64,000 nucleotides of DNA, from assembly GCA_016181175.1 (NCBI GenBank), contig JACOZV010000001.1, forward strand, positions 4,643-68,642, read 5' to 3'. Within the stretch, counting starts at the first letter, position 1, and each line of letters begins with the position of its first letter. The stretch is from Candidatus Yanofskybacteria bacterium. Lineage in GTDB: Bacteria; Patescibacteriota; Minisyncoccia; 2-02-FULL-40-12; IGHO2-01-FULL-4-A. The position numbers and the translations under genes are program-made. Shown one piece after another: positions 4,696 to 47,304 of this stretch. Under the pieces are notes generated by a model. It was not told the DNA's origin, ran no database searches, and saw only the letters and a list, made by a program, of their open reading frames with translations.

Positions 4696-4766
4696 GGGCG
4701 CATAGTTTAGTGGTAAAACAGGGATCTGATAAGTCCCAGTCCCAGATTCGATTTCTGGTGCGCCCA
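4696..4766 (+). tRNA. tRNA-Ile (anticodon GAT)
   Basis: Hand-folded cloverleaf: acceptor GGGCGCA/TGCGCCC, D-stem GTTT/AAAC, anticodon loop CTGATAA, T-arm CCAGA-TTCGATT-TCTGG. Confidence 0.85.
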
Positions 4767-4900
4767 CAATGGTCATAATCCTGCTCCGCAGGATAAGTCC
4801 TACCGAATTTTTATACGTCCTCAACAGAGCTCGGACTAAAATTCGGGGTTGAAATGAAGCAGATTCATTTCAACCGCCTAGTGCGCGCACAAAAGTACTC

Positions 4901-4972
4901 GGGCTGGTAGTTCAGCGGTAGAACGCTGCTTTTGCAAAGCAGAGGTCGGGGGTCCGACTCCCCCCCAGTCCA
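4901..4972 (+). tRNA. tRNA-Ala (anticodon TGC)
   Basis: Acceptor GGGCTGG/CCAGTCC (one G-U pair), anticodon stem CTGCT/AGCAG with loop TTTGCAA, T-arm GGGGG-TCCGACT-CCCCC. Confidence 0.85.
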
Positions 4973-4996
4973 CAGGAAAAATATAAAAAATTTTCT

Positions 4997-7852: not shown

Positions 7853-9601
7853 TTGAAGTTACTAAATGGGAAAATGACAAAACAAAAACTAATTCTAACG
7901 GGGCTTGCCGCGTTAAGCGGCTTGCTCTTGGCCCTTGCCTATCCGGGTTGGAGCTTTGGTTCGACTTGGCTCACCACAAGTGATTTGGGCTGGTTGGCCT
8001 GGATTGGATTTGTTCCACTTTTTTGGTCGTTGTTCCACATCGTTTCCGAATACGAACATACTCGGAAACGATGTGGATTTTTGGTAGGGTTTGCCGCAGG
8101 ACTGATTTACTTTTTAATTGTCTTCCGCTGGTTCTGGTCTATTTATCCGTTAGACACTCTTGGCATTGAGAGCCGCGCTATTTCTTTTTTCATCATCTTG
8201 CTTGTTTATTTAGTAAGTTCGACCGGAATGGCAATGTTTTGGGGACTCTTTGGATTAGTTACTGGTAACTGCCTGCCCCGTAGCTCGCCGAAAGCGATGG
8301 TTCGGGGGTTACTGGTAACTGGTAAATCAAAACCTTACCGATTACTAATAACTTTACCGGCTCTTTTTGTCCTACTTGAATACGCCCTCTCTTGGGGCTT
8401 TGGATTTCTTTGGGCGGGTTCCGGATCGTTTTTCGGACCGCACTGGACATTGGGCAATCTGGCTTATTCACTAGCAAATAACCCCTTGGCTCTAAAATTC
8501 GCATCTATCATTGGCATTTATGGAGTAACTTTTGCAATTATTTTTGTAAATTACCTGATTTTTACAATTTTAAAAAATAAGTTAGCAGAAACAAGGTCTA
8601 CAAGGGCCATCCTTGTTACAAGGATGGCCCTTGTAGTTCTGATTCTTATAGCGCTTATTTCTGGTCCGAAACTAATTAAACAACAAACCACGAAACAAGA
8701 AAACGCCGGAATAAACTTTGCTGTCATTCAAACGGCACAACCCACCAGATCATTTCCTAATTCGCAAGAAACATTGGCAAGTTTTGAGGAACAACTGAAA
8801 CTGCTTAATCGCGTCGCCAAAGAATATCCTGAAAGCCAACTTATTATTTTCCCGGAAACAAGTGAGCTGTTTAAAAATATCGCCCTATTTCTTACTCCGG
8901 CACAAGTCCAAGAATATTTCAACAACCTTTTTACAAAACCGAAACTAATAATCGCCGGTGGCAAAATTATTGATGATAGTCAAGTTTATTCACGAGTCTT
9001 TGATCTTGATACTCAAAACGACATTATCAACCATTATGACAAGCGTCTATTAACGCCGGGCGGTGAATTTTTGCCTTATCCATTGAAGTTTCTGGTTTGG
9101 TTATTTTCTAAAAACACAAATAGTCAATTTGAAAACCTGCGCGAGCTCAACATCGGCGGCAAAGACGTATCTACTGTAGATTTCCGCGGTCAATTTAAAA
9201 CGGCGCCGATGATATGCTCCGAACTTTTGTCTCCGAATTTAGTCAAGCAAACTTCTCAAAACTCGGATGTAATAGCAAGTATGGCAAGCTATGGTATTTT
9301 CCACGGAAAACAAGTCATTGCAAGGCAAATGCTGGCCGCCACGAGATTTAGGGCAGCAGAAACGGCTAAACCTATCATAACGGCTGCTAATTTGGGCAAA
9401 TCTTATGCGATAGACAGCCGTGGAAATATCATTTATTTGGCCCCCGACTCAACTTCCCAGATATTAACAGGCTTTGTTGCATTTGGTACCGATAAAACGT
9501 GGTATAATAAGGTAGGCGATTTGCCAATAATTTTGGCATCTTTGCTAATAGTGATAAGTTTAAACTTTTTAATATGGTTTAGGGAATTTAGGAGACCCTA
9601 G
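7853..9601 (+). CDS. lnt: apolipoprotein N-acyltransferase-like membrane protein (polytopic N-terminus plus carbon-nitrogen hydrolase domain)
   Basis: About 7 N-terminal hydrophobic segments, then a CN-hydrolase catalytic E/K/C pattern (IFPETS, YDKRLLTPGGEF, APMICSEL) and a C-terminal TM segment. Confidence 0.6.
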   Translation: MKLLNGKMTKQKLILTGLAALSGLLLALAYPGWSFGSTWLTTSDLGWLAWIGFVPLFWSLFHIVSEYEHTRKRCGFLVGFAAGLIYFLIVFRWFWSIYPLDTLGIESRAISFFIILLVYLVSSTGMAMFWGLFGLVTGNCLPRSSPKAMVRGLLVTGKSKPYRLLITLPALFVLLEYALSWGFGFLWAGSGSFFGPHWTLGNLAYSLANNPLALKFASIIGIYGVTFAIIFVNYLIFTILKNKLAETRSTRAILVTRMALVVLILIALISGPKLIKQQTTKQENAGINFAVIQTAQPTRSFPNSQETLASFEEQLKLLNRVAKEYPESQLIIFPETSELFKNIALFLTPAQVQEYFNNLFTKPKLIIAGGKIIDDSQVYSRVFDLDTQNDIINHYDKRLLTPGGEFLPYPLKFLVWLFSKNTNSQFENLRELNIGGKDVSTVDFRGQFKTAPMICSELLSPNLVKQTSQNSDVIASMASYGIFHGKQVIARQMLAATRFRAAETAKPIITAANLGKSYAIDSRGNIIYLAPDSTSQILTGFVAFGTDKTWYNKVGDLPIILASLLIVISLNFLIWFREFRRP

Positions 9602-9611
9602 GTCATCCTGT

Positions 9612-10595
9612 TTGATGTCGTTAAAATTAAAAATTTCTTTGGGAATTCTTCTGCTAATCGCCGGATTTTTGCTTGTTCGCATAGGTTTGTTTTTTAAGCA
9701 TAGCGTTCAAACAGCGACAACAGCAAATATAAACCGGCAAGTCGCTGGAGTTAATATTTTTGACCCTTCAAACATAGATTCTGACAACGACGGTATTCCT
9801 GACAATCTTGAAGCCTATTATCGAACCGACCCATTTAACCCCGACACTGACGGCGATGGTTACTTGGATGGCGAAGAAATAGTTTCAGGTTTTAGTCCGA
9901 TTAAACAAGAAATTGCCAGCGAACGTAATAAAAATACCAATATCACCGTTTCCTTTACCAACCATGTTATGGAAGGTTTGTACGTCGGGGATTTGAGCCC
10001 GAAGAAATTGGGAGAAGAAAAATTCGCAAAAAACATAGACAACCTTACTTTGGCAACAATAGATGACGCCGCCAGATCGTTAAACCCGCCAATTGTGACA
10101 GAATACGGGTTGGCCGTAATTTCAGAGTCCAAGCAAAACCAAAACGAATACATAAACAATGTTGATTCTTTATTGGAGGGTCCGTTCCTCAATTCATTTA
10201 TGCAACAACCCTACATATTAAGCCGGGCTGCAAATTTCATGACTACAAGCAACAACTCCGAAGCCGCAGAAATCTTCAAAAATCTTTCGCTTTCTTACTC
10301 AAGCGCCTACAATCGGCTTTTGGCGGTATCGGTACCCAAAAATTGGGTTCCATTCCATTCCCGTCTTCTCCAACTTTTCCAAAAATTTTCGCTTAACTAT
10401 CTGGCTTTAACAAAGGCACCAGAAGATCCGCTTCTAGCTATGACCGCCTTACAAGATTTACAAAATAACTTTATAGAAATTGATTCGTCGTTAATTCAAG
10501 AGCTTAAAATTTTAATACAAACACAGGATTTACAGATACCCAACACTCCCTTGTTTAGCATTTTAGACCTTTTGAGTACACAGAAAAACCAATAA
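9612..10595 (+). CDS. membrane-anchored secreted protein with Asp-rich calcium-binding-type repeats
   Basis: N-terminal TM helix; DSDNDGIPD and DTDGDGYLDGEE repeats of thrombospondin type 3 / EF-hand-like D-x-D-x-D-G form. Confidence 0.4.
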   Translation: MMSLKLKISLGILLLIAGFLLVRIGLFFKHSVQTATTANINRQVAGVNIFDPSNIDSDNDGIPDNLEAYYRTDPFNPDTDGDGYLDGEEIVSGFSPIKQEIASERNKNTNITVSFTNHVMEGLYVGDLSPKKLGEEKFAKNIDNLTLATIDDAARSLNPPIVTEYGLAVISESKQNQNEYINNVDSLLEGPFLNSFMQQPYILSRAANFMTTSNNSEAAEIFKNLSLSYSSAYNRLLAVSVPKNWVPFHSRLLQLFQKFSLNYLALTKAPEDPLLAMTALQDLQNNFIEIDSSLIQELKILIQTQDLQIPNTPLFSILDLLSTQKNQ

Positions 10596-11746
10596 TGGTC
10601 AACCGTCACACAAAAGCAATACTTAGCATAATACTAATCGGTTTCTTGGTTTTATACCCGGCACAAATAGCACGCTCAGCCGGCGCCATCGTTTACGTCC
10701 TCAAGGAATTCACCTTGGACGTTGTTGCCAGAGTGCTTGCCAGAACATTTTTGGGAAGGATGGATAATGCAATTACCGAATTCATAAGCAAGAATGGCCG
10801 AGACGACGCCCCCAATTTTATACAAAACTGGCGTGATTTTCTTGCCAACGCACAATACAGAGGGGAGGACGCAACAAGGGCAATAATCGGAGATGCTATA
10901 GACGCCGGCTCGGGCACTATTTGCCAATATTTGAGAAATCCTCTCGGCGCCGCTTTCGGGGCAAGCAAAATAGATGGTTTCAATCCTTCTTTATACAGAA
11001 TTGACTCTCTTCAATACTACAAACTGCGCAACAGATGCACTCTGCCAGCCGGTTTCAATATTGACGCTTTCAGAAACGACTTCGCCGGCGGAGGCGGCTG
11101 GACAGCTTGGAACCAGTTGATTCAACCGCAAAATAACGTATGGGGAGTGGTCAGTGACACACTAAACGAACTGACGAGCCAAAGAGTTTTTGAAGAAAAA
11201 ACCGATCAGGGTGAAGCTAATTCCGGAGGTGGCTTCACATCAAAAAGAAGCGGTGACAAGGGCTGTGTTTTGAGAGGCCTTAATACGACCTGCTTAATAC
11301 TTGGCGAGGTATTGACTCCGGCTGACATGTTTAAAGAAACTGCCGGCAAAATGAATTCGGCTGAATTTAATTGGCTGACAAGTTCCGATGAATTAAGCGA
11401 GGTCATCGCTTTCGCGGCATCGTGGGTTACGGACAGGTTGTCCAATCTTGCCGGAGCATCCACGCCTGATAATTTTACCCCGGACACGGCGAGAGGCACC
11501 GCGCTCCAAGAAAAAGCCAGACAGGACTGTATCAAAGCAGGAGAAAATACTTGCACGCAAAAAGCTAAAAAACTGGATTGTGACGCATCGGCCAGCGGGG
11601 GAGACGGCGGAAGCGGCGGAAGTGAAGATTCTGCGGGCAGTGGCGGCAGTGGCGGTTCAGCAAATGTAAATTGCGTAGAGGTAATTGATCAGGGAATTTA
11701 CAACTCATGCATGGCGGAGGTTAACAATAACTGCACTATCCAATAA
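10595..11746 (+). CDS. secreted Cys-containing hypothetical protein with a Gly/Ser-rich linker
   Basis: N-terminal hydrophobic signal or anchor; several Cys pairs; GGDGGSGGSEDSAGSGGSGGS low-complexity linker. Confidence 0.4.
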   Translation: MVNRHTKAILSIILIGFLVLYPAQIARSAGAIVYVLKEFTLDVVARVLARTFLGRMDNAITEFISKNGRDDAPNFIQNWRDFLANAQYRGEDATRAIIGDAIDAGSGTICQYLRNPLGAAFGASKIDGFNPSLYRIDSLQYYKLRNRCTLPAGFNIDAFRNDFAGGGGWTAWNQLIQPQNNVWGVVSDTLNELTSQRVFEEKTDQGEANSGGGFTSKRSGDKGCVLRGLNTTCLILGEVLTPADMFKETAGKMNSAEFNWLTSSDELSEVIAFAASWVTDRLSNLAGASTPDNFTPDTARGTALQEKARQDCIKAGENTCTQKAKKLDCDASASGGDGGSGGSEDSAGSGGSGGSANVNCVEVIDQGIYNSCMAEVNNNCTIQ

Positions 11747-11750
11747 TTAA

Positions 11751-13970
11751 ATGCTTAACAAGAAGTATAAAAAGCTTTACGTAATACTGGCGGTAATCAT
11801 AATACTTGCGGTTTTTGTTCCACAACATGAAGTAAAAGCAGTTTCTCTCTGTCCTGCCGTTTTTAGGGATTGTGTTATCGGTGTGCAGGAATGGATGATG
11901 GAGTTGGTAGGTAAAGCGATCGGTTGGGCTGCCAACTTACTGGATGTTTTTTTACAAAATCAGCCAATAAGCGGAGTTTTTGTTGTTGATCAAGGCTGGA
12001 CTACTGTCAGAAACTTTGTAAATTTGTTTTTTATTCTTGCTTTGATTATCATGGCTTTCGGCACGATTTTTGATATTAAAAAATATACCTGGCGAGATAT
12101 GCTTCCCGGATTTATAATCGCCGCTCTGCTTGTAAATTTTAGTCTTGCTATCGGCCAATATATTGCTGGGGTTGCCAATGGACTAAGTGGTGTTTTTTTG
12201 AGGGAAATTGGCCAAACTTCGGTTAACGCCGCCCAGGGTTCGGGTATACAAAAACTAGCAACAACTATTCCTACCGGGGTTAATTTGCTCGGCGGCACGG
12301 CCAGTGTAGCAATTAGCGGCATTTTTGCTCTAATTTTTTTAATTATTGTTTTTCTTGCATTTTTATCTGTCGCAATTTTTTCGATAGTTAGACTTGTTGC
12401 AATTTGGTTTCTTCTTATTATCTCCCCGATTGCTTGGCTGGGTTATGCCTTGCCTAATCTTAGAAGTCAAACGGCCAATTGGTGGAAACATTTTTTGTGT
12501 TGGTGTTTTTTTCTTCCTTATTACCTGTTTTTTATGACATTCGCGGTAATATTCGTCAGGAATAAAAACCAAATAGGTGCGTTACTTCCTACTACTTCTG
12601 GTGGTCCTATTCGTGAAATTTTCGGAAGTCCCGGTGCTATCAATGATTTTCTTTTTTATATTTTAAGCCTTATTTTTCTAGTGGGTGGATTAGCTTTAGC
12701 AATGAAACTGGCTTGCGCAAGCGGGACTTATGTAAGATCGGCTTTCGGGGTAATAGAATCAAGGGTGCGTAAATACGCCCCCGGGGCGGCATATGTCAGG
12801 GGAGCTAAAGAGGGACTGAAGGAACGTGTGGCAGAAATCCAAGAAAAAGGAATGCTTGGTATCGGTGGCGCCCAGCGTGCTCGCATACAGGAAGCTACGG
12901 CAAAAGGCTGGATCGCCGGCATACCAGGTAAGGTACCGGGCGCAACAGAAGAAGCTTCTAGAGCCAAGGTGGCAGAAGTAGATAAGGAAATAAAACGCTT
13001 GCAATTGCTTAATCTCACCCTAGACCAATTAAATATCCGCCTTAAAAAAGCCGGTGGCCCAGAAAAAATAGCTGCGCTAAAACTCAAAGCAGAAAATGGC
13101 TGGCTAGAAGCAGGTGACTTGGGTGAAATAAATAAAACAATAAGAGAAGCTGGTGGTGGCAGAAACGCTTTGGGCGCTTCGATTATCCAGTCCTTGAAAA
13201 AAGGCAAGTTCCATGAAATGGCGCAAACTACGGCTCAAAAAGAATTCATATTTAACAACCTGGAAGATGTTGGCGTAAAGAAGGAATTTGGCCTAAACAT
13301 GGCAGAAAGTAGAGAAATCATGAATGAAACTATTGCCAGACAACTACTGGAACTCTACTCTGGAGATATGAAAGAAGTCCAAGATAAAGTTGCAGAAACT
13401 GTCAAGAAAAATATTGACAACTTTGCCAAAGATAAGTCAGCCAGAGAAGCTATGGTAACCAGGGTAATAACGCCCACCACCACAAGGGCTGAAAAGAAAA
13501 TTATGGAATTGGCGGCAAAAACTATGGTTGAAAAGAAAGAGGTTAACAGCTGGAGCACCAGAAGGTCTATTTTGCAATTAACTGGCGGCATAGACCCAAC
13601 TACCGGCGATGCACTGACAGTAGAAGGCAGGACCCTGGCAAAAGAAATCAAAGACAACAACACCCTCTTCAAGGAAGAAATGGATTACAGAGCTTCACAT
13701 GGCATCTTGCCAGCCGTTGACCTAACACCGGCTCAACGAACTGATGTACAACGTCAGATAGAAACAAATATATCAAACGGCTTGATCCGCGGGTTAAGCG
13801 CCGAAGAAATGAAGACCCCAGAAATTTTCAACTCCATCAATTCTATAATGCCTAATATTCCAACCGCTAAACAAGCCAAATTCAAGCAAGAATTGTTGGG
13901 CAAAGGCGCTGACAGAAGGAAAAGAGAAGCATTTGATAAAGCCGCATTGGGTCCACCCATACCTTATTAA
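11751..13970 (+). CDS. VirB6/TrbL-like polytopic membrane protein with a long hydrophilic C-terminal tail
   Basis: Signal-like N-terminus, about 6 TM segments across residues 90-320, then roughly 400 aa of charged coiled-coil-like tail. Assignment rests on topology and position upstream of VirB3/VirB4-like genes only. Confidence 0.4.
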   Translation: MLNKKYKKLYVILAVIIILAVFVPQHEVKAVSLCPAVFRDCVIGVQEWMMELVGKAIGWAANLLDVFLQNQPISGVFVVDQGWTTVRNFVNLFFILALIIMAFGTIFDIKKYTWRDMLPGFIIAALLVNFSLAIGQYIAGVANGLSGVFLREIGQTSVNAAQGSGIQKLATTIPTGVNLLGGTASVAISGIFALIFLIIVFLAFLSVAIFSIVRLVAIWFLLIISPIAWLGYALPNLRSQTANWWKHFLCWCFFLPYYLFFMTFAVIFVRNKNQIGALLPTTSGGPIREIFGSPGAINDFLFYILSLIFLVGGLALAMKLACASGTYVRSAFGVIESRVRKYAPGAAYVRGAKEGLKERVAEIQEKGMLGIGGAQRARIQEATAKGWIAGIPGKVPGATEEASRAKVAEVDKEIKRLQLLNLTLDQLNIRLKKAGGPEKIAALKLKAENGWLEAGDLGEINKTIREAGGGRNALGASIIQSLKKGKFHEMAQTTAQKEFIFNNLEDVGVKKEFGLNMAESREIMNETIARQLLELYSGDMKEVQDKVAETVKKNIDNFAKDKSAREAMVTRVITPTTTRAEKKIMELAAKTMVEKKEVNSWSTRRSILQLTGGIDPTTGDALTVEGRTLAKEIKDNNTLFKEEMDYRASHGILPAVDLTPAQRTDVQRQIETNISNGLIRGLSAEEMKTPEIFNSINSIMPNIPTAKQAKFKQELLGKGADRRKREAFDKAALGPPIPY

Positions 13971-14476
13971 TGGAGTACAATTCGTTAAAACTTAGTCCTT
14001 ATTCAGTTGATGGTATGCAAACTCCTGGTTTTAATTATGGCTTATTCCAAGACAAACTGGATAACTTACCGACTAATTTAGTTGATTTTCTGCTGGATTC
14101 TTCTGTACCGGATTTCATTATGAATTTGACCCAAAAACATGTTCAATTAAGTATACGTGGTCCTGACATTGCTAGACTGATACGTGATATAGTAATAGGA
14201 GATGTCTTTGTGGGAGATATGCCACAGGAATTATCCAGGCGGTTAGGAACTGATCTGGCAACTTCCAGAGAAATAGCTAATCAAATTGCCTCTCAACTTT
14301 TTACACCGATTCTTGAAGATATTAAAAAAGTACAAATGGTAAAATTTCCGGGTAAATTGCCGGCAAAACCCGTTTCGCAACCAGCTCCCCAAGTTAAACC
14401 TACGGAGACACACTATCAAGGCGAAGAATTACCAGAATCAGGTGGTAATATTATAGATTTGCGAAGCAAGTCATAG
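13970..14476 (+). CDS. hypothetical protein
   Basis: ORF shares ATGA start/stop overlap with the upstream gene; no recognisable motif. Confidence 0.35.
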   Translation: MEYNSLKLSPYSVDGMQTPGFNYGLFQDKLDNLPTNLVDFLLDSSVPDFIMNLTQKHVQLSIRGPDIARLIRDIVIGDVFVGDMPQELSRRLGTDLATSREIANQIASQLFTPILEDIKKVQMVKFPGKLPAKPVSQPAPQVKPTETHYQGEELPESGGNIIDLRSKS

Positions 14477-14508
14477 GTTATAGGTTATAGCTGATAGGTA
14501 ATAGCTTA
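14474..14508. repeat. left inverted-repeat block flanking the four-helix-bundle gene
   Basis: GGTTATAGG...AGGTAATAGCTTA; its reverse-complement blocks recur at 14919-14948. Confidence 0.6.
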
Positions 14509-14552
14509 AAAAATGAGTTCTAGAAATAGGAGGCTAGGACGCAAAATAAAAA

Positions 14553-14918
14553 GTGGATAAAATTCATTCGTATAGAGACTTAGTGGTATGGCAAAAGTCC
14601 ATTGAACTAGTGATAGAAATATATGAACTAACGGATAAATTTCCAAAAGAAGAAATATACGGGCTAATTTCGCAATTAAGGAGAGCTGCCGTTTCAATTC
14701 CTTCTAATATCGCCGAGGGCAGGTATCGTGGGACAAGAAAAGATTTTAGGCAATTTCTTCTTAACGCTTACGGCTCTGGCGCTGAAGTTGAAACACAATT
14801 GGTTATTGCAAATAAATTGCCAAAAACAAAAAATTTAAATTATGCCAGAGCAAATAAAATTCTAAATGAAGTAATGCGAATGTTAAATTCACTAATCAAA
14901 AAATTGGAAAATTCATAA
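14553..14918 (+). CDS. four-helix-bundle protein of the 23S rRNA intervening-sequence (IVS) type
   Basis: WQKS..L....Y..T..FPKEE..GL.SQLRRAA.SI..NIAEG, typical of the TIGR02436 / S23-ribosomal-like family. Confidence 0.7.
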   Translation: MDKIHSYRDLVVWQKSIELVIEIYELTDKFPKEEIYGLISQLRRAAVSIPSNIAEGRYRGTRKDFRQFLLNAYGSGAEVETQLVIANKLPKTKNLNYARANKILNEVMRMLNSLIKKLENS

Positions 14919-14948
14919 CTATAACCTATTACCTATAAGCTATTACCT
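14919..14948. repeat. right inverted-repeat block (CTATAACC...TAAGCTATTACCT)
   Basis: Reverse complement of the blocks at 14474-14508. Confidence 0.6.
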
Positions 14949-14953
14949 GCATC

Positions 14954-15241
14954 ATGAGATTCCAAGTTCCACAATTCATAGAAACAGAAACCAAGATTGT
15001 CGGGCCTTTTACATTTAAGCAGTTTTTGTTTCTAGCAGTCGGGGCAGTAATAATTTTTATACTTCAATACATTATTAGTAATTTTACTTTTTTAATAGTT
15101 GCAAGTTTACCAATCGCCATGTTGTTTATTGCCTTGGCATTTTATCAGATAGACGGTATGCCATTACCGCAATATCTACTGACGGCATTATCATATTTGA
15201 CTGGACCCAAAAGGTACCAATTCCGCAAAAATAACGATTAG
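14954..15241 (+). CDS. VirB3-like small two-TM membrane protein
   Basis: 95 aa with two hydrophobic helices, directly upstream of VirB4; conserved arrangement in T4SS loci. Confidence 0.4.
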   Translation: MRFQVPQFIETETKIVGPFTFKQFLFLAVGAVIIFILQYIISNFTFLIVASLPIAMLFIALAFYQIDGMPLPQYLLTALSYLTGPKRYQFRKNND

Positions 15242-15252
15242 AAACCGAGATT

Positions 15253-15894
15253 ATGGCCACACCCCAAAAAAACCAATCTACTAGAGATTTTGTAGAAATC
15301 GCCGACGTTCGCGATAACATTGTTATTTTAAAAAATGGCTCTCTACGATCGGTAATTGAGGTCAACTCAATGAATTTTGAACTAAAATCCACCGACGAAC
15401 AAACGGCTATCATACAAGCTTTTCAAAATTTCTTAAATTCCATAGACTTTCCGCTTCAAATAGCAATAAATTCACGTAAACTAGATATAGGGCCTTATCT
15501 GAAATCACTTGATACCTTAACCCAAAGTATTTCCAGTGAATTATTAAAAATACAAGGCATAGAATATACACGATTCATCAAAGGACTGACCGAGCTTGCC
15601 AACATTATGTCCAAAAAATTTTATATTTCCGTCCCGCTTTATGTAACAGAAACAATAGGCAAGGGGGGGCAAAAAACTGGCATATTTGATGCTTTCAAAA
15701 GCATTGTCAGTCCTTCTAAATTTGTTAAAACACTAACGGACGAAGAATTGGCAAACTATAAAATACAGCTTGAACAAAGAATCCAATTTATAATGGGCGG
15801 CATCGGAGGCTTGGGCATAGAGGCGCGAGTGCTGAACAAAGAGGAACTAATGGGCCTTTATTACTCGTATTATAACCCCGGACATCACTTATAA
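15253..15894 (+). CDS. VirB4-like protein, N-terminal fragment (separated from the ATPase ORF by a -1 frame change and a stop)
   Basis: 213 aa ends at TAA 15892-15894; the next ORF's ATG is at 15897 in a different frame. Combined length of about 807 aa matches full-length VirB4. Confidence 0.45.
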   Translation: MATPQKNQSTRDFVEIADVRDNIVILKNGSLRSVIEVNSMNFELKSTDEQTAIIQAFQNFLNSIDFPLQIAINSRKLDIGPYLKSLDTLTQSISSELLKIQGIEYTRFIKGLTELANIMSKKFYISVPLYVTETIGKGGQKTGIFDAFKSIVSPSKFVKTLTDEELANYKIQLEQRIQFIMGGIGGLGIEARVLNKEELMGLYYSYYNPGHHL

Positions 15895-15896
15895 AT

Positions 15897-17681
15897 ATGG
15901 CCTTATTCGGTAAAAAACCACAACCAACCGTTCAGCCAATGGAACCGCCAGTAAAAACACTGGACGATTTACTAGCTCCGTCGGCCATAGATATTTCTTC
16001 TAATTATCTGCAAATAGGCGACACTTTTGCCCGCACGCTTTTCGTCGCAACTTACCCAAGATATCTAAATACCAATTGGTTCTCGCCGGTAGTTAATATG
16101 GACCGTCCTTTTGATGTTTCTGTTTTTGTGCATCCAGAAGATACTGCCCAGATGTTAAAACAACTGCGCGACCGTTTGGGACGGCTTCAGGCACAGGAAA
16201 TAGAGGAACAATCGTCCGGTAAAGTAAGGGACCCAGTGCTAGAAACGGCTATCGGCGATATTGAAACTCTGCGAGACAAACTTCAGCAAGGAACAGACAG
16301 GTTTTTTAAGTTGGGGGTATACATAACAATTTATGGCAACTCGCTGAAGGATCTCGATGACACAGAAAATAAAATCAAGTCAATTCTTGACGGCCAATTG
16401 GTTTATTCCAAACAGGCAACATTCAGAATGAAGGAGGGATTCTTTTCCACACTACCGCTTGATGACGACCAACTTCAAATACACAATTCACTGAATACCG
16501 AACCGATCTCCTCGCTTTTTCCTTTTGTATCCTACGATTTAACCACGGACAAAGGAATACTTTATGGAATAAATACCCACAATAATTCCCTTATTTTATT
16601 TGACAGGTTCAGCATGGAAAACGCCAACATGGTTATATTCGGCAAATCCGGCGGCGGTAAAAGCTATACGGTAAAACTGGAGATTTTAAGAAGTCTGATG
16701 TTTGGGACGCAAGTTTTTGTAATTGACCCGGAAAATGAATATAAATTTCTCGCCGATACTGTAGGCGGTACTTCAATTAAAATATCCATAGCTTCACCGC
16801 ACCATATCAATCCGTTTGATTTGCCCAAGCCATTGCCAGATGAAAGCCCCGCCGATGTCCTGCGCTCTCATGTAATAAATCTCATGGGACTTTTCAAGTT
16901 AATGCTTGGGGCGCTTTCTGCGGAGGAAGAGGCGATTTTGGACGAGGCCATCAACCAAACTTATGCGATTAAGGACATTACGCCGCAAACTGCTGATTTC
17001 AAAAATATAGTGCCTCCTTTGATGTCAGACTTCCAAAATATCCTTGAAAGTATGGCAGGCACTGAATCTTTGGCTATTAGGATCAAAAAATATACGGAAG
17101 GGACGTTCGCCGGTTTTCTGAACAATCCGACCAACGTTGAACTGGGCAATCAGCTGATAGTTTTTAGCATCCGCGACATGGAGGAGGAGCTACGCCCGAT
17201 AGCAATGTACCTCGTGCTCAATTTTATCTGGACGCAGGTTAGAACTGAATTAAAAAAGCGTATTTTGGCCGTAGACGAGGCGTGGGTACTGATGAAATAC
17301 GAGGCCGGAGCGGCATTCTTGTTCAACATAGCCAAACGTGCCCGCAAATATTATCTGGGTCTAACTACAATTTCCCAAGATATACCGGACTTTATGGCCT
17401 CTTCTTATGGCAAACCAATCGTGACTAATTCTTCACTGCAATTACTGTTAAAACAATCCCCGGCAGCAATTGACCTGGTAAAACAAACGTTCAACCTTAC
17501 TGACGCAGAAAAGTTTTATCTTTTGGAGTCACGAGTAGGTCACGGGCTGTTTTTTGCCGGAATTAATCATGTCGCGTTGCGAGTAGTGGCTTCTTACGCT
17601 GAAGATCAGATAATTACTTCCGACCCTAGACAGATATTGGAAATAGAAGAAGCCAAGAAAGAATTAGCTCAACAGAGTTGA
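15897..17681 (+). CDS. virB4: type IV secretion system ATPase VirB4/TrbE/CagE family (C-terminal ATPase portion)
   Basis: Walker A FGKSGGGKSYTV, IDPENEY, Walker B ILAVDEAW. Confidence 0.8.
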   Translation: MALFGKKPQPTVQPMEPPVKTLDDLLAPSAIDISSNYLQIGDTFARTLFVATYPRYLNTNWFSPVVNMDRPFDVSVFVHPEDTAQMLKQLRDRLGRLQAQEIEEQSSGKVRDPVLETAIGDIETLRDKLQQGTDRFFKLGVYITIYGNSLKDLDDTENKIKSILDGQLVYSKQATFRMKEGFFSTLPLDDDQLQIHNSLNTEPISSLFPFVSYDLTTDKGILYGINTHNNSLILFDRFSMENANMVIFGKSGGGKSYTVKLEILRSLMFGTQVFVIDPENEYKFLADTVGGTSIKISIASPHHINPFDLPKPLPDESPADVLRSHVINLMGLFKLMLGALSAEEEAILDEAINQTYAIKDITPQTADFKNIVPPLMSDFQNILESMAGTESLAIRIKKYTEGTFAGFLNNPTNVELGNQLIVFSIRDMEEELRPIAMYLVLNFIWTQVRTELKKRILAVDEAWVLMKYEAGAAFLFNIAKRARKYYLGLTTISQDIPDFMASSYGKPIVTNSSLQLLLKQSPAAIDLVKQTFNLTDAEKFYLLESRVGHGLFFAGINHVALRVVASYAEDQIITSDPRQILEIEEAKKELAQQS

Positions 17682-17775
17682 GCTAATTCTTTCAATTCCT
17701 AATTACTAATTACTAATTTTTAAATAAATCCCAATCCTTTAAATTCCAGTAACTAAATTGTTTAGAAATTAGAAA

Positions 17776-18204
17776 TTGCGTATGCCCGCTGACAACCAAT
17801 ACTATTACGACCTTGCAACAGACCGAGCCAGCTATCAAAAACTGCGCGAAGAAGATTTGGCGCGCCAACAAGCAGAAGAAGAACAGAATCAAGAACGGAT
17901 GGGTTGGGGAACATTTCTGGTTGCATTGGTTTTAAGCTTAATTGCCGATGCAGTTGAGCTTATTACGATAGGAACGCTTGGTTGGTTCGTCGGATTCGTC
18001 GTTGACCTTATATTGATGACAATGTTAGGATTTTCAAGAGCAGGACGAAAACAATGGAAAAAGTGGATATGGGGACCTATAATAGAGAAGGTGCCGATAC
18101 TTGCCGCAATTCCGTTTTTCCGCGCCACATTTCTGACATGGGCATTTATTTCCTCACGTAGTCCCATACTGCAACAACTAAGCAAAGCAGCTTCGCCTAA
18201 GTAA
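17776..18204 (+). CDS. small membrane protein, hypothetical
   Basis: Acidic N-terminus, then 3 hydrophobic segments. Confidence 0.35.
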   Translation: MRMPADNQYYYDLATDRASYQKLREEDLARQQAEEEQNQERMGWGTFLVALVLSLIADAVELITIGTLGWFVGFVVDLILMTMLGFSRAGRKQWKKWIWGPIIEKVPILAAIPFFRATFLTWAFISSRSPILQQLSKAASPK

Positions 18205-18217
18205 GCTAAAATAAAAA

Positions 18218-19294
18218 ATGCTAAAAAAACTTGCGATTTCTTTTATCTTTATCCTCATCATCACAGCCACTTTCCTGGCCGGTTATTTGTTCAGCCGTAA
18301 ATCAGACTTGCCAGATCAACAAGCCTTGATAAATAATTCGCTAGTTGAACGCTTTAATCAAACTGAAGAAAAATACGTTGAGCCGACTGGCCTTTTTGAG
18401 CTTACATCTGGCGAAGCAAGTTTTCCAACGATTCGAGCGAACGGCGAAATATGGTACTACACGCCCAAAAATGGAGAGATACGCTCTGCTTCATTTAAAA
18501 ACCTTCTTGCCGGTTCTGCCCTTGTCGCAAAAATTCAACCCAACGCAATCAATATCAGCTGGGGATCAGATAAGACATTGCTGGCAAATTATTCAACAGG
18601 CGCGATTTACTACGATCTCGGTTCAAATTTTTCCAAAAAATATGAGATTAACATAAAAAACCCCGTTCTATCCAAAACAGGAAACAAAACCGCCTACATT
18701 TATTTTAACCAAGAATCGGGAGAAGGTAATATCAGCATCGCCAACCCCAAATTAGAGTCATTCAAAAATGTTCTTCCGACTCGTTTTACAAACTGGCAAA
18801 TCAAATGGTTGGGAGAAAACAAACTAGCGCTTACTAAACCGCCGACTCTGGAAAGTTCTCAAGCGTCACTTTTTACTTTGGACACGGAAAATGGAAAAAC
18901 ATTACAAAATATAATCAACTTAAAAAATAATCTTGAAGTCGCGTGGTCGCCTGACGAACAAAAAATAGTTTATTCTTATGTTGACTCTTCAACCGGGCAA
19001 AACGGTTTGTATCTTATGAATTTGGGCGCCAAAGAAGAAATGCCCCTCAATCTGAACTATACTGCTTCTAAATGTGTTTGGAGTTTTGATAATAAAACCG
19101 TTTACTGCGCCGGGGTAGATTCATTCGTGTCCTTAGACGCGACAGCGGCAAATGCGGGCACCCAGACAATCGCTAACTCCCAAAGCATTGACGCCTCTTC
19201 CGCCACAAATCTTTTTCTAACCAGCACTGGCGACTATATTATCTTCAAAAATATCAAAGACGGTAAGTTGTACGGGCTACATTTGGCACAGTGA
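18218..19294 (+). CDS. membrane-anchored secreted protein, β-propeller-like (TolB-like repeats)
   Basis: N-terminal TM anchor; repeated motifs LSKTGNKTAYIYFN and WSPDEQKIVYSY. Confidence 0.4.
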   Translation: MLKKLAISFIFILIITATFLAGYLFSRKSDLPDQQALINNSLVERFNQTEEKYVEPTGLFELTSGEASFPTIRANGEIWYYTPKNGEIRSASFKNLLAGSALVAKIQPNAINISWGSDKTLLANYSTGAIYYDLGSNFSKKYEINIKNPVLSKTGNKTAYIYFNQESGEGNISIANPKLESFKNVLPTRFTNWQIKWLGENKLALTKPPTLESSQASLFTLDTENGKTLQNIINLKNNLEVAWSPDEQKIVYSYVDSSTGQNGLYLMNLGAKEEMPLNLNYTASKCVWSFDNKTVYCAGVDSFVSLDATAANAGTQTIANSQSIDASSATNLFLTSTGDYIIFKNIKDGKLYGLHLAQ

Positions 19295-19310: not shown

Positions 19311-20756
19311 CTACCAATTCTCAATTTCCTCGGGTAGCTCCGGGGATTTTTTTATGGAGATAATCTCACGAAGGTCAGCTCTTGTAAAAACTCTCAATGC
19401 CAACAATAGAGGAAAATACAACAACGAAATAAGCGATGCTTTAGTAAAACTGTCCGTAAGAGGATACATCAACACTGCTATGATGGTCATGGCCAAAATA
19501 GTTTTGGCAAATAAGGTCTTGTTGACTGTAATTTTAATACTGCGATGAATCAACCAAAACATAGCAAGGGTTATAAAAATCTCGGTTACTACCGTCGTTG
19601 AGGCGGCGGCAAAGTAGCTGTACTCGGGAATCAATAAAAAATTAAGTCCGACGTTGATTACCGCTCCGGTAAAATAAATCCACATAGCTTTTCTTTGCAA
19701 GTTTAGCGCGATAATCGTGTTGCCACCCAAATTGCCGAAAAATATCAAGAGTATGGCAAAACTCAAAATCTTAAGAACCGGGCTGGCTTCAAGGAACGCA
19801 CCTCCACCAATTGCTCTTACTATCCAATCAGACATCAAAAAAATATAGACGGAAAAATAAAGGGCGAAAATTGTGACTACATTAAATGCGCTCTTGAAAG
19901 TTTTGATGAACTCCGGCCTGTTTTTAACCGCAAATCGGGAAAGGAGAGGCATTACCAGACCAATATAAATTGCCGGCAGGAATATAACCGCCTCCAAAAC
20001 TTTGTAAGCAGCAGAGTAAATGCCGACGTCTTGGGCCGGCTTCATTACTGAAAGCATAACTGTATCCAGTTTGAAATAGATAAGAACTAGCACTAAAGAA
20101 ACCGCGATAGGGAAAGCAGTCTTGAGGGCATGGCGGAAATAAACAAAGTCAATCATCGGCTTTACCTTGACCATGCGTCTGGAAAATCCATAGATAAGGA
20201 CAAGGTGAACCGTTTCCGAAAAAACCACAACGGCTACGAACCACAAAAGGCCAGTTTCAAATTTGATTAAAATTGCCAACGAGCCCAGTTGGACAAATCG
20301 CGCTAAAATATCGGCAAATGAAACAAAATAAATACGCACATATTTCTGGAATATACCGGTTAAAACTTGCGCCAAAGAAGAACCGATGGAAAAAAGAGAA
20401 GCAATTAGAACACCGAGTTTAACTTTAAGAGGGTAGGGAAAGGCAAAAACTAACAGATCAGCCAAAATTATTATTGAAACTACCGTCAGAAGACGCAGAG
20501 TAAAAATTTTACTGGCTATCTTCCTTTCTTCACCAGGCTCACTGATACGCGAAATTTCTCGGACCATAAAAGTATGAAGTCCGAGATCGGCAACAGCGGT
20601 AAAAATATAAAGGTAAGCGAAAATCGCGCTGTATTGGCCGAATCCCTCCGGCCCCAAAAAACGCGTCAAAATTCCAACAACAACCAAACTCAATCCGCCG
20701 ATTATCCCGCGGGATAATGTCGCGATACCCAAATTATATGAAATCTTTTGCAACAT
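19311..20756 (-). CDS. MOP-superfamily lipid-linked oligosaccharide flippase (Wzx/MurJ-like polysaccharide biosynthesis protein)
   Basis: 481 aa with about 12-14 TM segments; N-terminal LSRGIIGGLSL...LTRFLGPEGFG pattern. Confidence 0.65.
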   Translation of the reverse strand: MLQKISYNLGIATLSRGIIGGLSLVVVGILTRFLGPEGFGQYSAIFAYLYIFTAVADLGLHTFMVREISRISEPGEERKIASKIFTLRLLTVVSIIILADLLVFAFPYPLKVKLGVLIASLFSIGSSLAQVLTGIFQKYVRIYFVSFADILARFVQLGSLAILIKFETGLLWFVAVVVFSETVHLVLIYGFSRRMVKVKPMIDFVYFRHALKTAFPIAVSLVLVLIYFKLDTVMLSVMKPAQDVGIYSAAYKVLEAVIFLPAIYIGLVMPLLSRFAVKNRPEFIKTFKSAFNVVTIFALYFSVYIFLMSDWIVRAIGGGAFLEASPVLKILSFAILLIFFGNLGGNTIIALNLQRKAMWIYFTGAVINVGLNFLLIPEYSYFAAASTTVVTEIFITLAMFWLIHRSIKITVNKTLFAKTILAMTIIAVLMYPLTDSFTKASLISLLYFPLLLALRVFTRADLREIISIKKSPELPEEIENW

Positions 20757-32808: not shown

Positions 32809-34476
32809 TTATTCTCCTATAACCCGCATAACTTCTTCTATAGATGTGGTCCCGTCTAGTACTTTTAATAGTCCATCTTGTAATAATGTAATCATTCCTT
32901 TTTTCACAGCTAAGCCGTGGACTTCTGATATCGCCGGTGATGTTAGAATTAGTTTTTCCATTTCGTCGTCAATCTCAAATAATTCATAAATGCCAACCCT
33001 GCCTTGATAGCCGGTATTATTGCATTCTTGACATTGTTGAGGATAAAATATTTCCAGTGATTCATTCAATTTCGGTATTTCCATATTTTTTGGTAAAACA
33101 GCAAGATATTTTTTAAGCAACTCCAAATCTTCTTTGCTGATTTTCTCTTTTTTCTTACATTTTTGGCAAAGCCGTCTGACTAATCTTTGAGCCATTGCGG
33201 CATTAATTGCTGGGGCAATCGTTATCGGTCTTACACCCAAATCTATTAGCCGTGGAATTGTTCCAGAGGCGTTGTTAGTGTGCAACGTTGAAAAAACCAA
33301 ATGTCCCGTGAGTGCCGCCTGCATGGCAATTTCCGCAGTCTCCACGTCGCGTATTTCGCCTACCAGTATCACGTCGGGATCTTGTCGGACGATTGAACGC
33401 AGGCCGCCAGCAAAAGTATAGCCGGCTTTTGGATCAACTTGCGTTTGTGAAACGCCTTCAACATGGTACTCAATTGGATCTTCTATGGTAATTATTTTTA
33501 CATCAGACTTGTTAACATGTTTTATGAAAGCGTAAAGAGTTGTCGTTTTGCCGGAACCAGTCGGGCCGGTTGTAAGTATCGCACCGCTGGTTTTTTCAAG
33601 GAGTTTTTTAATCTGTTCCAATATGTCTTCCCTCATGCCCAAATCCTCAAGTTTTTGCTTGATAGTCGTGGGATCCAATATGCGCATGACGATATTTTCA
33701 CCGTAATTTCCCGGCAAAATTGAAACCCTGACTTCTATGTCTTGACCCTCTCTTCTTACGGTGAAGCGTCCATCTTGCGGTGAGTCGTGAATGTTTATTT
33801 TTAAGCCAGACAGCAACTTAATACGCGAAAGGATATTCGGGTAGCCCTCCGTGGAGAAATCAACAACATCGCTTAACACGCCGTCGAGCCTATAGCGCAG
33901 GCGTATTACTTTTTCTTCTGGTTCAAAATGTATATCCGAAGCCTTTATCTTAAGCGCGCCGGCTATTAATATATCAAGAACCTTAGTTATCGGCAGGGCA
34001 GTAAGCCGCTCTTTCAGATCAGCTATGTCTTTTATTTGTTTTTCTATATCTGATAGTTCATTTTCTTTGAGAGTGACCACTCCGTGTGTTTCTTCTGTCC
34101 GTTCTTTTTTCTCGCGGTATCTTTGCCAAGCCGTTTCTAAACTTAGCGGAGATGTTATCACCAGTCCATAAGCATATCCCTGTGTTTTCAGTTTATTTAA
34201 GATAAGTTGTGTTTGTTGGTTTTGCGGGTCAGAAACGGCAATTTTAAGATTTTGTCCAGTTTTTGACAGCACTACCAACTGGCCGCTGCGAGCATCTTTT
34301 TCATCCACGATTAAAACAGCATTAGTATCAATGGGAAATATTTTAAGGTCAGCATAAGGCAAACTTGATTTTTGAGCGGTTGCTTTTGTTTCTTCCTCAA
34401 TTTTTTGTACCTGAATAGAGGAAAGTTTTTCTTCCAGTTCCTTTTCCAAGTCTTGTTTTGTGGATATTTGTGCCAC
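32809..34476 (-). CDS. pilB: type IV pilus assembly / type II secretion ATPase of the PilB/GspE family
   Basis: Walker A GPTGSGKTTT; VGEIRD; His box; C-terminal tetracysteine CQKC...CQEC. Confidence 0.85.
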   Translation of the reverse strand: MAQISTKQDLEKELEEKLSSIQVQKIEEETKATAQKSSLPYADLKIFPIDTNAVLIVDEKDARSGQLVVLSKTGQNLKIAVSDPQNQQTQLILNKLKTQGYAYGLVITSPLSLETAWQRYREKKERTEETHGVVTLKENELSDIEKQIKDIADLKERLTALPITKVLDILIAGALKIKASDIHFEPEEKVIRLRYRLDGVLSDVVDFSTEGYPNILSRIKLLSGLKINIHDSPQDGRFTVRREGQDIEVRVSILPGNYGENIVMRILDPTTIKQKLEDLGMREDILEQIKKLLEKTSGAILTTGPTGSGKTTTLYAFIKHVNKSDVKIITIEDPIEYHVEGVSQTQVDPKAGYTFAGGLRSIVRQDPDVILVGEIRDVETAEIAMQAALTGHLVFSTLHTNNASGTIPRLIDLGVRPITIAPAINAAMAQRLVRRLCQKCKKKEKISKEDLELLKKYLAVLPKNMEIPKLNESLEIFYPQQCQECNNTGYQGRVGIYELFEIDDEMEKLILTSPAISEVHGLAVKKGMITLLQDGLLKVLDGTTSIEEVMRVIGE

Positions 34477-45140: not shown

Positions 45141-45401
45141 TTATTTCAGAAGGGTTCTTTTCAAGGCTTGTTTGAGCTGATTCCTTCCAAAACCACTTTT
45201 TAGAAATACTTCTCTGGCTTTAGCATCTTGTTCGTTGATAAAGTACTCGTAATGAATAAGTTTTAATGGCCTACGATCTCTTGTTGATTTAACTTCACCG
45301 CGAGCGTGTTGCTGTAATCTGTTTTTAAGATTTGTAGTAAAACCAGCATAGAGTTTATTGTCTTTCAAGGATAGCAGGGTGTAAACGTAAAATCGTTCCA
45401 T
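45141..45401 (-). CDS. GIY-YIG nuclease-domain protein (stand-alone, 86 aa)
   Basis: FYVYTL...KLYAGFTTNLKNRLQQH...EYF matches the GIY-YIG core. Confidence 0.7.
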   Translation of the reverse strand: MERFYVYTLLSLKDNKLYAGFTTNLKNRLQQHARGEVKSTRDRRPLKLIHYEYFINEQDAKAREVFLKSGFGRNQLKQALKRTLLK

Positions 45402-46012: not shown

Positions 46013-46147
46013 GACAACCTCCTTAATTAAAGAACGTATATGACAAGAGTAGTTTTTTTAGCAAACAGTGTCAAATTAACAAATAGGTTCTAACCCGCTA
46101 TTACCTGTATAAAAAATAGATAAGTAAAAATTAGGTTTTCCGTCTTG

Positions 46148-46218
46148 AGCGGGTAAGGGGAATTGAACCCCTCTCTCGTCCTTGGCAAGGACGCGTAATG
46201 CCGATATACCATACCCGC
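46148..46218 (-). tRNA. tRNA-Gly (anticodon GCC)
   Basis: Acceptor GCGGGTA/TACCCGC, anticodon stem CGTCC/GGACG with loop TTGCCAA, T-arm AGGGG-TTCAATT-CCCCT. Confidence 0.8.
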
Positions 46219-46229
46219 GATTTCTTTAG

Positions 46230-46300
46230 TGCCGGAGGGCAGAATCGAACTGCCTTCAGACGCTCTTCAGGCGCCTGCTTTACCATTAAGCTACTCCGGC
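46230..46300 (-). tRNA. tRNA-Phe (anticodon GAA)
   Basis: Acceptor GCCGGAG/CTCCGGC, D-arm GCTT-AATGGTA-AAGC, loop CTGAAGA, T-arm GGCAG-TTCGATT-CTGCC. Confidence 0.8.
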
Positions 46301-46974
46301 CTTCTTGGTTTTTGTAGATAGGGAAGTCCTAGATATTTATCCTGTTCAATCGCGTCTTTTATTTTACGATACTTTCTATTAAGACGCAAACGATGAGAGG
46401 GATAATACATTGTAGAAAAAAGTTTCTTAGTGTCTCCCTTTACATATTCTAAATTCCATACCCCAGAGCCTTTATGTAGATAACCCATAACGCTATAATA
46501 TTGCGTTAATTTATTTTTAAGCCAAGTCAGGAAATCTAAACTTGCCGAAGCTATGGATAATTTAAAAGAGAAACTACTAGGCCACCTTTTGTCCCTAAAA
46601 GTATAAAAAGTGCCATCTCCATCAAAGAGACCTCTCAAAAAATCAGGAAAATAAAGTCGGGGTACTTTAACACGTTTTATAGTTTTAGATTTAGCCGGAG
46701 TTAGGTCAATATCATTTAAGAATCTGTAGATATATATGTCACCAAAAGTAATACAATAGTATCTTTTTTCCGTTTCACCACCTCTGGCATATTTACCGAT
46801 TTTGTTACTTAGATGTAGGGATTTTTTAAATGTTTCAATGAGTTGTAAATCTTTAGAAGAGAACCATATATGCCTTCTGTCTTTATTCAAACACCCATCG
46901 GCCGTAATAAGCCCGATCGCATATGCTAAATCATTACACCACATAGTGCTAACTTTTCTTTGAACTCGACCCAT
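46291..46974 (-). CDS. LAGLIDADG homing endonuclease, two-motif monomeric type, free-standing
   Basis: Motif 1 LAYAIGLITADGCL; motif 2 LRGLFDGDGTF. The 3' end overlaps the 5' end of tRNA-Phe by about 7 nt. Confidence 0.8.
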   Translation of the reverse strand: MGRVQRKVSTMWCNDLAYAIGLITADGCLNKDRRHIWFSSKDLQLIETFKKSLHLSNKIGKYARGGETEKRYYCITFGDIYIYRFLNDIDLTPAKSKTIKRVKVPRLYFPDFLRGLFDGDGTFYTFRDKRWPSSFSFKLSIASASLDFLTWLKNKLTQYYSVMGYLHKGSGVWNLEYVKGDTKKLFSTMYYPSHRLRLNRKYRKIKDAIEQDKYLGLPYLQKPRRPE

Positions 46975-47108: not shown

Positions 47109-47121
47109 GGCCATATTAATT

Positions 47122-47301: not shown

Positions 47302-47304
47302 GAC

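Follow-up and report, generated by a model that had tools for sequence, protein, structure and literature searches.

Which machine is encoded by a compact cluster of secretion-like genes among the housekeeping genes of Candidatus Yanofskybacteria, and in which direction would it move its cargo? The cluster lies at positions 9612–19294 of the window, that is, of the whole 64-kb stretch of DNA analysed here, and comprises ten open reading frames (ORFs) with spacings of −1 to 94 nt over 9.7 kb. A sequence-only reading had described it as a one-strand cluster resembling a type IV secretion system (T4SS). The six ORFs named there are indeed all on the + strand and lie where it placed them; four others within the interval had been overlooked, encoding proteins of 168 aa, 121 aa (an intervening-sequence, or IVS, protein), 213 aa (TrsD-like) and 142 aa. 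We estimate with a probability of roughly 85% that the locus is a chromosomal, vertically inherited T4SS of the Patescibacteria, derived from the conjugation apparatus of monoderms (MPF_FATA class) and organized in the Paceibacteria arrangement. Most of these ultra-small bacteria encode such a system beside the origin of replication. This kind of system is already known from descriptions published in 2023–2025, and the locus is an intact copy of it. Four genes form the core of this interpretation:

11751..13970, + strand: candidate extended VirB6/TrbL-like polytopic protein, 739 aa (AlphaFold2 and Foldseek; Pfam TrbL at family level)
14954..15241, + strand: PrgI-family protein, the VirB3 equivalent, 95 aa, with two transmembrane (TM) segments (Pfam PF12666, 1e-13)
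15253..15894, + strand: predicted TrsD-like protein, 213 aa, a detached VirB4 N-terminal domain (N-terminal positions of NCBIfam models; fused homologue)
15897..17681, + strand: VirB4 ATPase, 594 aa, the C-terminal two-thirds of a canonical VirB4 (NCBIfam CD1110, Pfam, PDB)

By sequence, the 594-aa protein belongs to the Gram-positive CD1110 type of VirB4 ATPases. Its score against NCBIfam NF045971 (VirB4-like conjugal transfer ATPase, CD1110 family) is 356.8 bits (2.4e-106), above the curated cut-off of 325, and the match spans model positions 184–732 of 752. Further matches were obtained to Pfam P-loop_TraG (4.8e-26) and CagE_TrbE_VirB (7.6e-06), to the Thermoanaerobacter VirB4 domain 4AG5 (3e-42) and R388 TrwK (2e-07) in PDB, and to PrgJ of plasmid pCF10 (3.7e-42, about 26% identity). 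The motifs quoted in the sequence-only reading are intact: Walker A FGKSGGGKSYTV starts at residue 248, IDPENEY follows at 276, and Walker B ILAVDEAW lies at 456. More than 8000 homologues were found, the top 120 of which are 69–100% identical and come, as far as their taxa are named, from Patescibacteria-type organisms (Yanofskybacteria, Paceibacterota, Parcubacteria and others). The same protein also matches the HerA/DUF87 central domain of Pfam (1.3e-08), as would be expected if there were no T4SS here and a HerA/FtsK-type ATPase merely stood next to unrelated membrane proteins. However, this score is far below those of the VirB4-specific models, and the archaeal-type models CedB NF041017 (40.1 bits; cut-off 700) and CedD (16.7 bits; cut-off 600) fall far short. 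Moreover, the ATPase adjoins PrgI and a TrsD-like VirB4 N-domain, and another neighbour has a VirB6-like fold. The outcome that the sequence-only reading had set against itself, a HerA/FtsK ATPase among neighbours lacking T4SS likeness, was thus found in neither half, and the HerA/FtsK explanation is refuted, with a probability that is practically nil.

The ATPase lacks the N-terminal third of a canonical VirB4, and this third appears to be supplied by the preceding ORF, whose stop lies 2 nt ahead of the virB4 ATG. The 213-aa protein matches VirB4 models at their N-terminal positions (NF045975, positions 99–230, 3.2e-09; TIGR00929, positions 5–71, 8.6e-04) and the TrsD/TraD model NF041427 at 1.6e-06 (28 bits against a cut-off of 200). 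It is also 51% identical to residues 4–202 of a rare fused homologue of 786 aa (P0110). A PDB sequence search with this protein gave nothing useful. Because a profile of 77 TrsD sequences was not significantly similar to PrgJ by hhalign (E 0.23), the assignment rests on the NCBIfam models and the fused homologue. By these matches, the ORF is a TrsD-like VirB4 N-domain and VirB4 is encoded in two pieces. A frameshifted VirB4 pseudogene was considered and ruled out: among 80 related virB4 loci (L001–L080, one genome per species), 78 have PrgI and TrsD directly upstream of virB4, and in 77 of these 78 TrsD is a separate ORF of 205–319 aa.

The 95-aa protein, taken in the sequence-only reading for a two-TM VirB3-like ORF, is confirmed as such by its PrgI match, which covers protein positions 5–87 and model positions 2–88 of 91. 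Among the core assignments, that of the 739-aa protein is the least certain. Its proposed identity as an "extended VirB6", a category described previously (PMC12857230), draws on weaker but convergent evidence, and the VirB6/TrbL-like topology ascribed to it earlier is upheld indirectly. An AlphaFold2 model built from 60 sequences reached a mean predicted local distance difference test score (pLDDT) of 86.7 and consists of a helical membrane domain (about residues 35–342) and an all-helical tail (about 398–735) with pLDDT above 90. The highest-probability Foldseek matches in PDB were TrwI/VirB6 chains of R388 (probability 0.97–0.99, target TM-score (TMt) of about 0.4, 12–15% identity to TrwI; best match 8rt9_F with probability 0.99, TMt 0.40 and E 0.13), and the remaining ones were low-probability helical-repeat proteins aligning to the tail. 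At the level of the family, which counts 89 homologues, Pfam TrbL was matched by six of 60 members (best 1.8e-05) and TrbL_4 by two of 60 (3.3e-06); no other family recurs. One of the members, P0174, which is related to the window protein at 8.9e-60, attains the TrbL_4 gathering score (27.1 versus 27). The family profile, searched against PDB sequences, returned coiled-coil/Vipp1-type noise for the tail and no VirB6. Only 24 relatives of the tail exist among 1.84 billion representative proteins, all of them tails of proteins with the same architecture. The tail probably faces the cytoplasm according to the positive-inside rule, since an Arg/Lys run directly follows the last TM helix.

Comparison of the 80 loci showed that the neighbourhood of this core is conserved as well. 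A VirB6-like protein is encoded upstream of virB4 in 49 loci, the genes jag-yidC-(rnpA)-dnaA-dnaN lie downstream in about 23–31, and ksgA lies upstream in 22. No gene of the neighbourhood is better conserved than virB4, whose product has a mean identity across loci of 59%, above DnaA and UvrD (53% each), KsgA (42%), YidC (41.5%) and DnaN (38%). The VirB6-like protein, by comparison, diverges fast (mean identity 29%), and together with the TSP3, Cys-rich and propeller proteins of the cluster spans a range of 29–36%. This pattern of synteny and conservation indicates a core function that is inherited vertically and strongly constrained, rather than a mobile element. An integrative and conjugative or other mobile element was rejected on the conserved core-gene synteny, the lack of an integrase and the lack of a GC break, the interval having a GC content of 0.37–0.44 without contrast to the rest of the window. 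A decaying, non-functional remnant of an integrated conjugative element could explain why VirB1, VirB8, the type IV coupling protein (T4CP) and relaxase are missing, why VirB4 is split and why a foreign cassette sits in the operon. Nevertheless, the split is the conserved state, the ORFs are intact and tightly spaced, and the Walker motifs are preserved. The very high conservation, the large number of homologues and the essentiality of the system in Southlakia also speak against decay, so that a remnant is scarcely credible.

Scans with Pfam, which covered every window ORF of at least 110 aa and ten further, mostly small intergenic ORFs, recognized only housekeeping genes outside the cluster. 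The upstream flank encodes GAPDH, transketolase, UDG, UvrD, KsgA and Lnt. The downstream flank begins with a flippase, Jag, YidC, YidD, RnpA, L34 (rpmH), DnaA and DnaN, with dnaA 3.9 kb beyond the end of the cluster, and continues farther away with PBP1, TyrRS, RuvC, YebC, RuvB, PilB, NusA, trigger factor and more housekeeping genes. The 739-aa protein has an exact counterpart in HYT61_00100 and the 383-aa protein in HYT61_00095, both on a 374,535-bp contig of a metagenome-assembled genome of Candidatus Yanofskybacteria.

This setting is the one described for T4SSs in the Candidate Phyla Radiation (CPR), which are documented (PMC12102498, PMC10633639, PMC7427843). The sequence-only reading had invoked minimal systems of CPR and Saccharibacteria; the link to CPR stands, and the host belongs to the class Paceibacteria, not to the Saccharibacteria. 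McLean et al. (2020) reported homologues of VirB4, VirB6 and VirB2 across Saccharibacteria and other CPR lineages. In Southlakia epibionticum, transposon sequencing (Tn-seq) showed the T4SS genes to be essential for epibiotic growth, and neither coupling protein nor relaxase was recognizable (Wang et al. 2023, PMC10633639). A survey of 3,035 Patescibacteria genomes found VirB4 in 2,417, nearly all in one monophyletic clade nested in MPF_FATA, with TrsD as the most abundant associated component and PrgI/VirB3 and VirB6 also common (Quinonero-Coronel et al. 2025, PMC12102498). In the Paceibacteria, among which that survey counts Yanofskybacteria, the cluster lies near dnaA, dnaN, rnpA, rpmH and ksgA, and VirB2 arrays are found chiefly in Saccharimonadia and Microgenomatia (PMC12102498). 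A VirB2-like pilin near virB4 is frequent in Patescibacteria (1,135 assemblies) but not universal. The window locus shares with these systems (PMC12102498; Southlakia epibionticum SEML1_0006–0019) the core of VirB4, TrsD, PrgI/VirB3 and VirB6, the absence of a relaxase and the chromosomal place by dnaA, dnaN, rnpA, rpmH and ksgA. The combination of a CD1110-type VirB4, TrsD, PrgI, a VirB6-like protein, proximity to the origin and no relaxase supports its membership in the MPF_FATA-derived Patescibacteria group. It differs from them in several respects: there is neither a VirB2-like pilin gene or array nor, downstream of virB4, any peptidase or lysozyme gene; the VirB6-like protein escapes standard hidden Markov models (HMMs) and has a helical tail of about 340 aa that is restricted to the lineage; and an IVS-protein cassette breaks the operon.

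Known systems outside the Patescibacteria are more distant. The order prgH(VirB6)-prgI(VirB3)-prgJ(VirB4) of Prg/Pcf on pCF10 (Enterococcus faecalis), the MPF_FATA prototype, is mirrored here, and both VirB4 proteins belong to the CD1110 family. However, pCF10 has a one-piece VirB4 of 796 aa and a tailless PrgH of 266 aa. Its PrgK hydrolase, VirB8-like PrgL and PrgD, PcfC (VirD4), PcfG relaxase and PrgB adhesin are not detectable here, and VirB4–PrgJ was the sole match when the cluster proteins were compared with 22 pCF10 transfer proteins by phmmer. The Trs system of the staphylococcal plasmids pGO1/pSK41 (TrsC-TrsD-TrsE) likewise has a separate TrsD, similar to the VirB4 N-terminus, just before the VirB4 ATPase (PMC12102498), but it is plasmid-borne and conjugative and possesses relaxase and T4CP, and the TrsD model matches the window protein weakly. 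In R388 Trw (7O3V, 8RT9, 8RTD), TrwI/VirB6 superposes on the TM domain of the 739-aa protein and TrwK matches VirB4; this is, in contrast, a diderm system with VirB2, VirB5, VirB7–VirB11 and VirD4.

The missing parts bear directly on function. No family match to a relaxase, a VirD4/TcpA-type coupling protein or VirB11 was obtained by Pfam anywhere in the 64-kb window, in agreement with the sequence-only reading, and no NCBIfam family match to a relaxase or coupling protein was found among the cluster ORFs. Searches by tblastn with PcfC, PcfG and PrgL of pCF10 returned nothing in the window or in the 80 related loci. VirB4 is the only ATPase of the cluster. Since relaxase, coupling protein and VirB11 are absent from the cluster and VirB4 is its sole ATPase, the locus does not represent a conjugation apparatus. 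A conjugative or mobilization system could nevertheless keep its coupling protein and relaxase elsewhere in the genome, given that VirD4-like T4CP genes were found in 2,918 Patescibacteria genomes, mostly distant from virB4 (PMC12102498), and that the window covers 64 kb. Against this, relaxases occur in only 103 of the 3,035 genomes and the T4CP homologue of Southlakia is not essential while its T4SS is (PMC12102498). The cluster also lies in a conserved core-gene neighbourhood near the origin, with vertical synteny and neither an integrase nor a compositional break, and its VirB4 is conserved beyond DnaA, unlike the genes of mobile elements. We regard conjugation as highly unlikely.

With regard to further components, the VirB2 pilin families PF04956 and PF18895 had no match in the cluster, in other window ORFs or in small intergenic ones. 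Sequence searches of the cluster ORFs revealed no match to PrgK, PrgL or PrgD and no hydrolase or NTF2 Pfam family, although a hidden VirB8 fold is possible in the 168-, 142- and 327-aa proteins. The window's only T2SSE-family ATPase is a PilB-type protein with an MshEN domain at 32809–34476, which stands alone between ruvB and nusA, as the sequence-only reading had it; Pfam scans detected no other pilus gene in the window.

Several observations weigh against the T4SS interpretation or limit its reach. No VirB1-, VirB2- or VirB8-family match was found in the window by Pfam, which leaves the crossing of the wall unaccounted for, and a VirD4-like gene may exist elsewhere in the genome, as the absence covers 64 kb only. 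For the VirB6 assignment, the E values of the Foldseek matches to TrwI/VirB6 were 0.13–0.3, none of them significant; the 739-aa protein itself had no Pfam TrbL match at E ≤ 1 and no significant Pfam or NCBIfam match; and the hhalign comparison of its family with the single sequence of pCF10 PrgH was co-linear at E 0.0017 with a probability of 15%. The requirement for epibiotic growth was shown in Southlakia epibionticum only (Tn-seq, PMC10633639). Finally, the T4CP-less Ptl and Brucella VirB systems export proteins; a missing T4CP alone is thus no argument for import.

Archaeal Ced (CedA/A1/A2/CedB) and Helicobacter ComB are importers that use a VirB4-type ATPase alone and are not known to have a relaxase or coupling protein. 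The cluster resembles them by functional analogy in its minimal set, in which one VirB4-type ATPase is accompanied by a polytopic membrane protein and small TM proteins; it differs in that its ATPase scores far below the CedB model and that the outer-membrane core parts of ComB are missing. Import of host-derived macromolecules (nucleic acids) would be the likeliest direction of transport, a preference that we hold tentatively and for which such T4SS-derived importers are one reason. It is also favoured because comEC is dispensable in Southlakia and the T4SS essential (PMC12857230), because radA and comF adjoin virB4 in ABY1-type loci (PMC12102498), and because a preprint reports tubular T4SS-like structures and acquisition of host RNA in a cultivated relative (bioRxiv 10.64898/2026.06.21.733656). 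Export of effectors, toxins or adhesins to the surface or the host cell, possibly including the co-encoded signal-peptide proteins, is the usual direction of a T4SS. Wang et al. wrote that the Southlakia system "may instead export proteins" (PMC10633639), three or four of the proteins encoded in the cluster have a signal or anchor segment at the N-terminus, and Ptl and Brucella VirB provide precedents. However, no effector-like gene or secretion signal is recognizable, the two-step Ptl-type route depends on two things missing from monoderms, a periplasm and an outer-membrane core (PMC12102498), and nucleotide acquisition independent of comEC would still require a route. Export is the main rival of import and appears to us somewhat unlikely.

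For the T4SS interpretation, a membrane motor can be envisaged in which the two-TM PrgI/VirB3 protein, the split VirB4 (213 + 594 aa) and the extended VirB6-like channel would act together. By extension from the literature on R388 and Gram-positive T4SSs, PrgI and the TrsD-like N-domain would tether a VirB4 hexamer to the membrane at the VirB6 channel. The energy for assembly, and for the passage of macromolecules through VirB6 at the site of contact with the host cell, would come from ATP hydrolysis by VirB4. The TSP3, Cys-rich, small TM and TolB-like propeller proteins may then serve as fast-evolving envelope or host-contact accessories. A more specific proposal is that the Yanofskybacteria/Paceibacteria version is an importer of host nucleic acids or other macromolecules without pilin or coupling protein, in which the VirB6 tail would dock the substrate at VirB4 and the specificity for a host would be determined by the fast-evolving Ca-binding, Cys-rich and propeller proteins; as a complete package this is rather improbable.

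The remaining features of the cluster are as follows:

9612..10595, + strand: TSP3 protein, 327 aa, with an N-terminal membrane anchor (Pfam TSP3_bac, 2.2e-08)
10595..11746, + strand: Cys-rich secreted or anchored protein, 383 aa (hydrophobic N-terminus, 10 Cys)
13970..14476, + strand: soluble protein, 168 aa, its start overlapping the stop of the 739-aa ORF; no TM segment
14482..14948, + strand: probable inserted cassette, with imperfect inverted repeats at 14482–14508 and 14922–14948 and an IVS gene
14553–14918, + strand: "23S rRNA intervening-sequence protein", 121 aa, four-helix bundle (PF05635, 7.5e-37; TIGR02436, 3.8e-36)
17776..18204, + strand: membrane protein, 142 aa, 2–3 TM segments, in the "+1" slot past virB4
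18218..19294, + strand: membrane-anchored protein with a possible TolB-like beta-propeller, 358 aa, in the "+2" slot (weak TolB matches)
19327..19346, + strand: terminator-like hairpin followed by a T-run (8-bp stem with 5 GC pairs, then TTTTTTT; consensus match only)

The last of these lies 33 nt past the last stop codon and closes the + strand gene string. The calcium-binding D-x-D-x-D-G repeats noted earlier in the 327-aa protein correspond to two TSP3_bac stretches behind a single N-terminal TM segment. In NCBIfam it also resembles, locally, CglD and MtsD, two proteins of adhesion in Myxococcus, and a PDB sequence search gave no match; by these sequence features the protein is likely a surface or adhesion accessory. 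The 383-aa protein, correctly described before as Cys-rich, is a lineage-restricted accessory with only 24 homologues, mostly in Yanofskybacteria and none with a Pfam domain, in which PQNN, GGW and four Cys are among the invariant positions. Structure prediction, which had been suggested for this protein and the 739-aa one, was informative for the latter; the AlphaFold2 model of the 383-aa protein, built from 24 homologues, had a pLDDT of 66 and no interpretable fold, and its best Foldseek match in PDB (E 1.8, probability 0.07) is meaningless. The 168-aa ORF is translationally coupled to the VirB6-like gene, and its product matched nothing in Pfam or PDB. The 142-aa protein had no Pfam match either; its candidacy as a VirB2 pilin was rejected, as Pfam gave no support and its long hydrophilic N-terminus is atypical. 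The beta-propeller proposed for the 358-aa protein is weakly supported: TolB propeller matches were found in NCBIfam (2.2e-04) and PDB (6e-03), Pfam propeller matches were weak, and the protein may be called TolB-propeller-like with that reserve.

Propeller homologues occur downstream of virB4 in 15 of the 80 loci, TSP3 homologues upstream of it in nine, and Cys-rich homologues, in eight, immediately upstream of the VirB6-like gene. The relative positions of all three are constant wherever they are found. Homologues of the 168-aa and 142-aa proteins are present in four and three loci, respectively. Most of the loci have a "+1" ORF of 120–220 aa after virB4. Among the +1/+2 genes of the related loci, RadA was found in 8–9 loci, a DsbA-like protein in seven, an NTF2_YvbJ-like protein in five and a ComF-like protein in three. 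The NTF2_YvbJ-like proteins could be VirB8-like parts. The top 25 families of these genes include no VirB2 pilin.

The IVS element is probably an inserted cassette and not a part of the T4SS. Its inverted repeat of 27 nt has 89% complementarity and scores 18, compared with 7.9 ± 1.1 in shuffled sequences (0 of 200 reach 18) and a maximum of 11 in real-sequence controls, and the cassette is missing in the closest relatives (L001–L003). Homologous IVS genes are present in ten of the 80 loci (L006, L010, L014, L043, L050, L054, L058, L063, L067 and L068), each with its own inverted repeat of 15–28 nt composed of short tandem-like units, and in at least five of these ten the gene lies just upstream of prgI. 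The element resembles a small mobile cassette that inserts preferentially at one site.

Other parts of the window also contain features of interest in their own right. Within the Lnt-like ORF, positions 8598–8636 form a perfect palindrome with an 18-bp stem and a 3-nt loop, which occurs nowhere else in the window, where chance alone would produce none, and codes for a linker segment without counterpart in the relatives (gaps of 5–8 residues in L001–L003). A tRNA-Ile(GAT) and a tRNA-Ala(TGC), the usual spacer pair of an rRNA operon, lie at 4696–4973; no rRNA gene was found in the window, and an Rfam search returned tRNAs only. Three small genes of the kind found in selfish elements (45141–45401, 46291–46974 and 48241–48942) are situated near a cluster of tRNA genes at 46147–47544; they comprise a GIY-YIG nuclease ORF (5.5e-14), a LAGLIDADG_3 ORF (4e-10) and an ORF with weak transposase-type helix-turn-helix matches. 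A block of higher GC content (0.45–0.51 versus about 0.40 elsewhere) at about 54000–60100, which may be foreign DNA, contains two large ORFs without Pfam match (54221–55255 and 57113–58243), a metallo-beta-lactamase (MBL)/beta-CASP nuclease-like ORF, a NUDIX ORF and a cold-shock-domain ORF.

Few machines have been shown to be indispensable to CPR bacteria for living as epibionts, and the T4SS of the Patescibacteria is one of them. The locus described here is a clean and compact example from the Paceibacteria rather than a new kind of system. Its additions are incremental: a VirB6 candidate with a lineage-private tail, which escapes HMMs and is recognizable only by structure or transitive homology, the lack of a nearby pilin, a recurring downstream propeller and an IVS cassette within the operon. 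The envelope parts of the cluster diverge fast, whereas its motor protein, VirB4, exceeds even DnaA in conservation. These observations could help in selecting constructs for structural studies or for AlphaFold-Multimer modelling.

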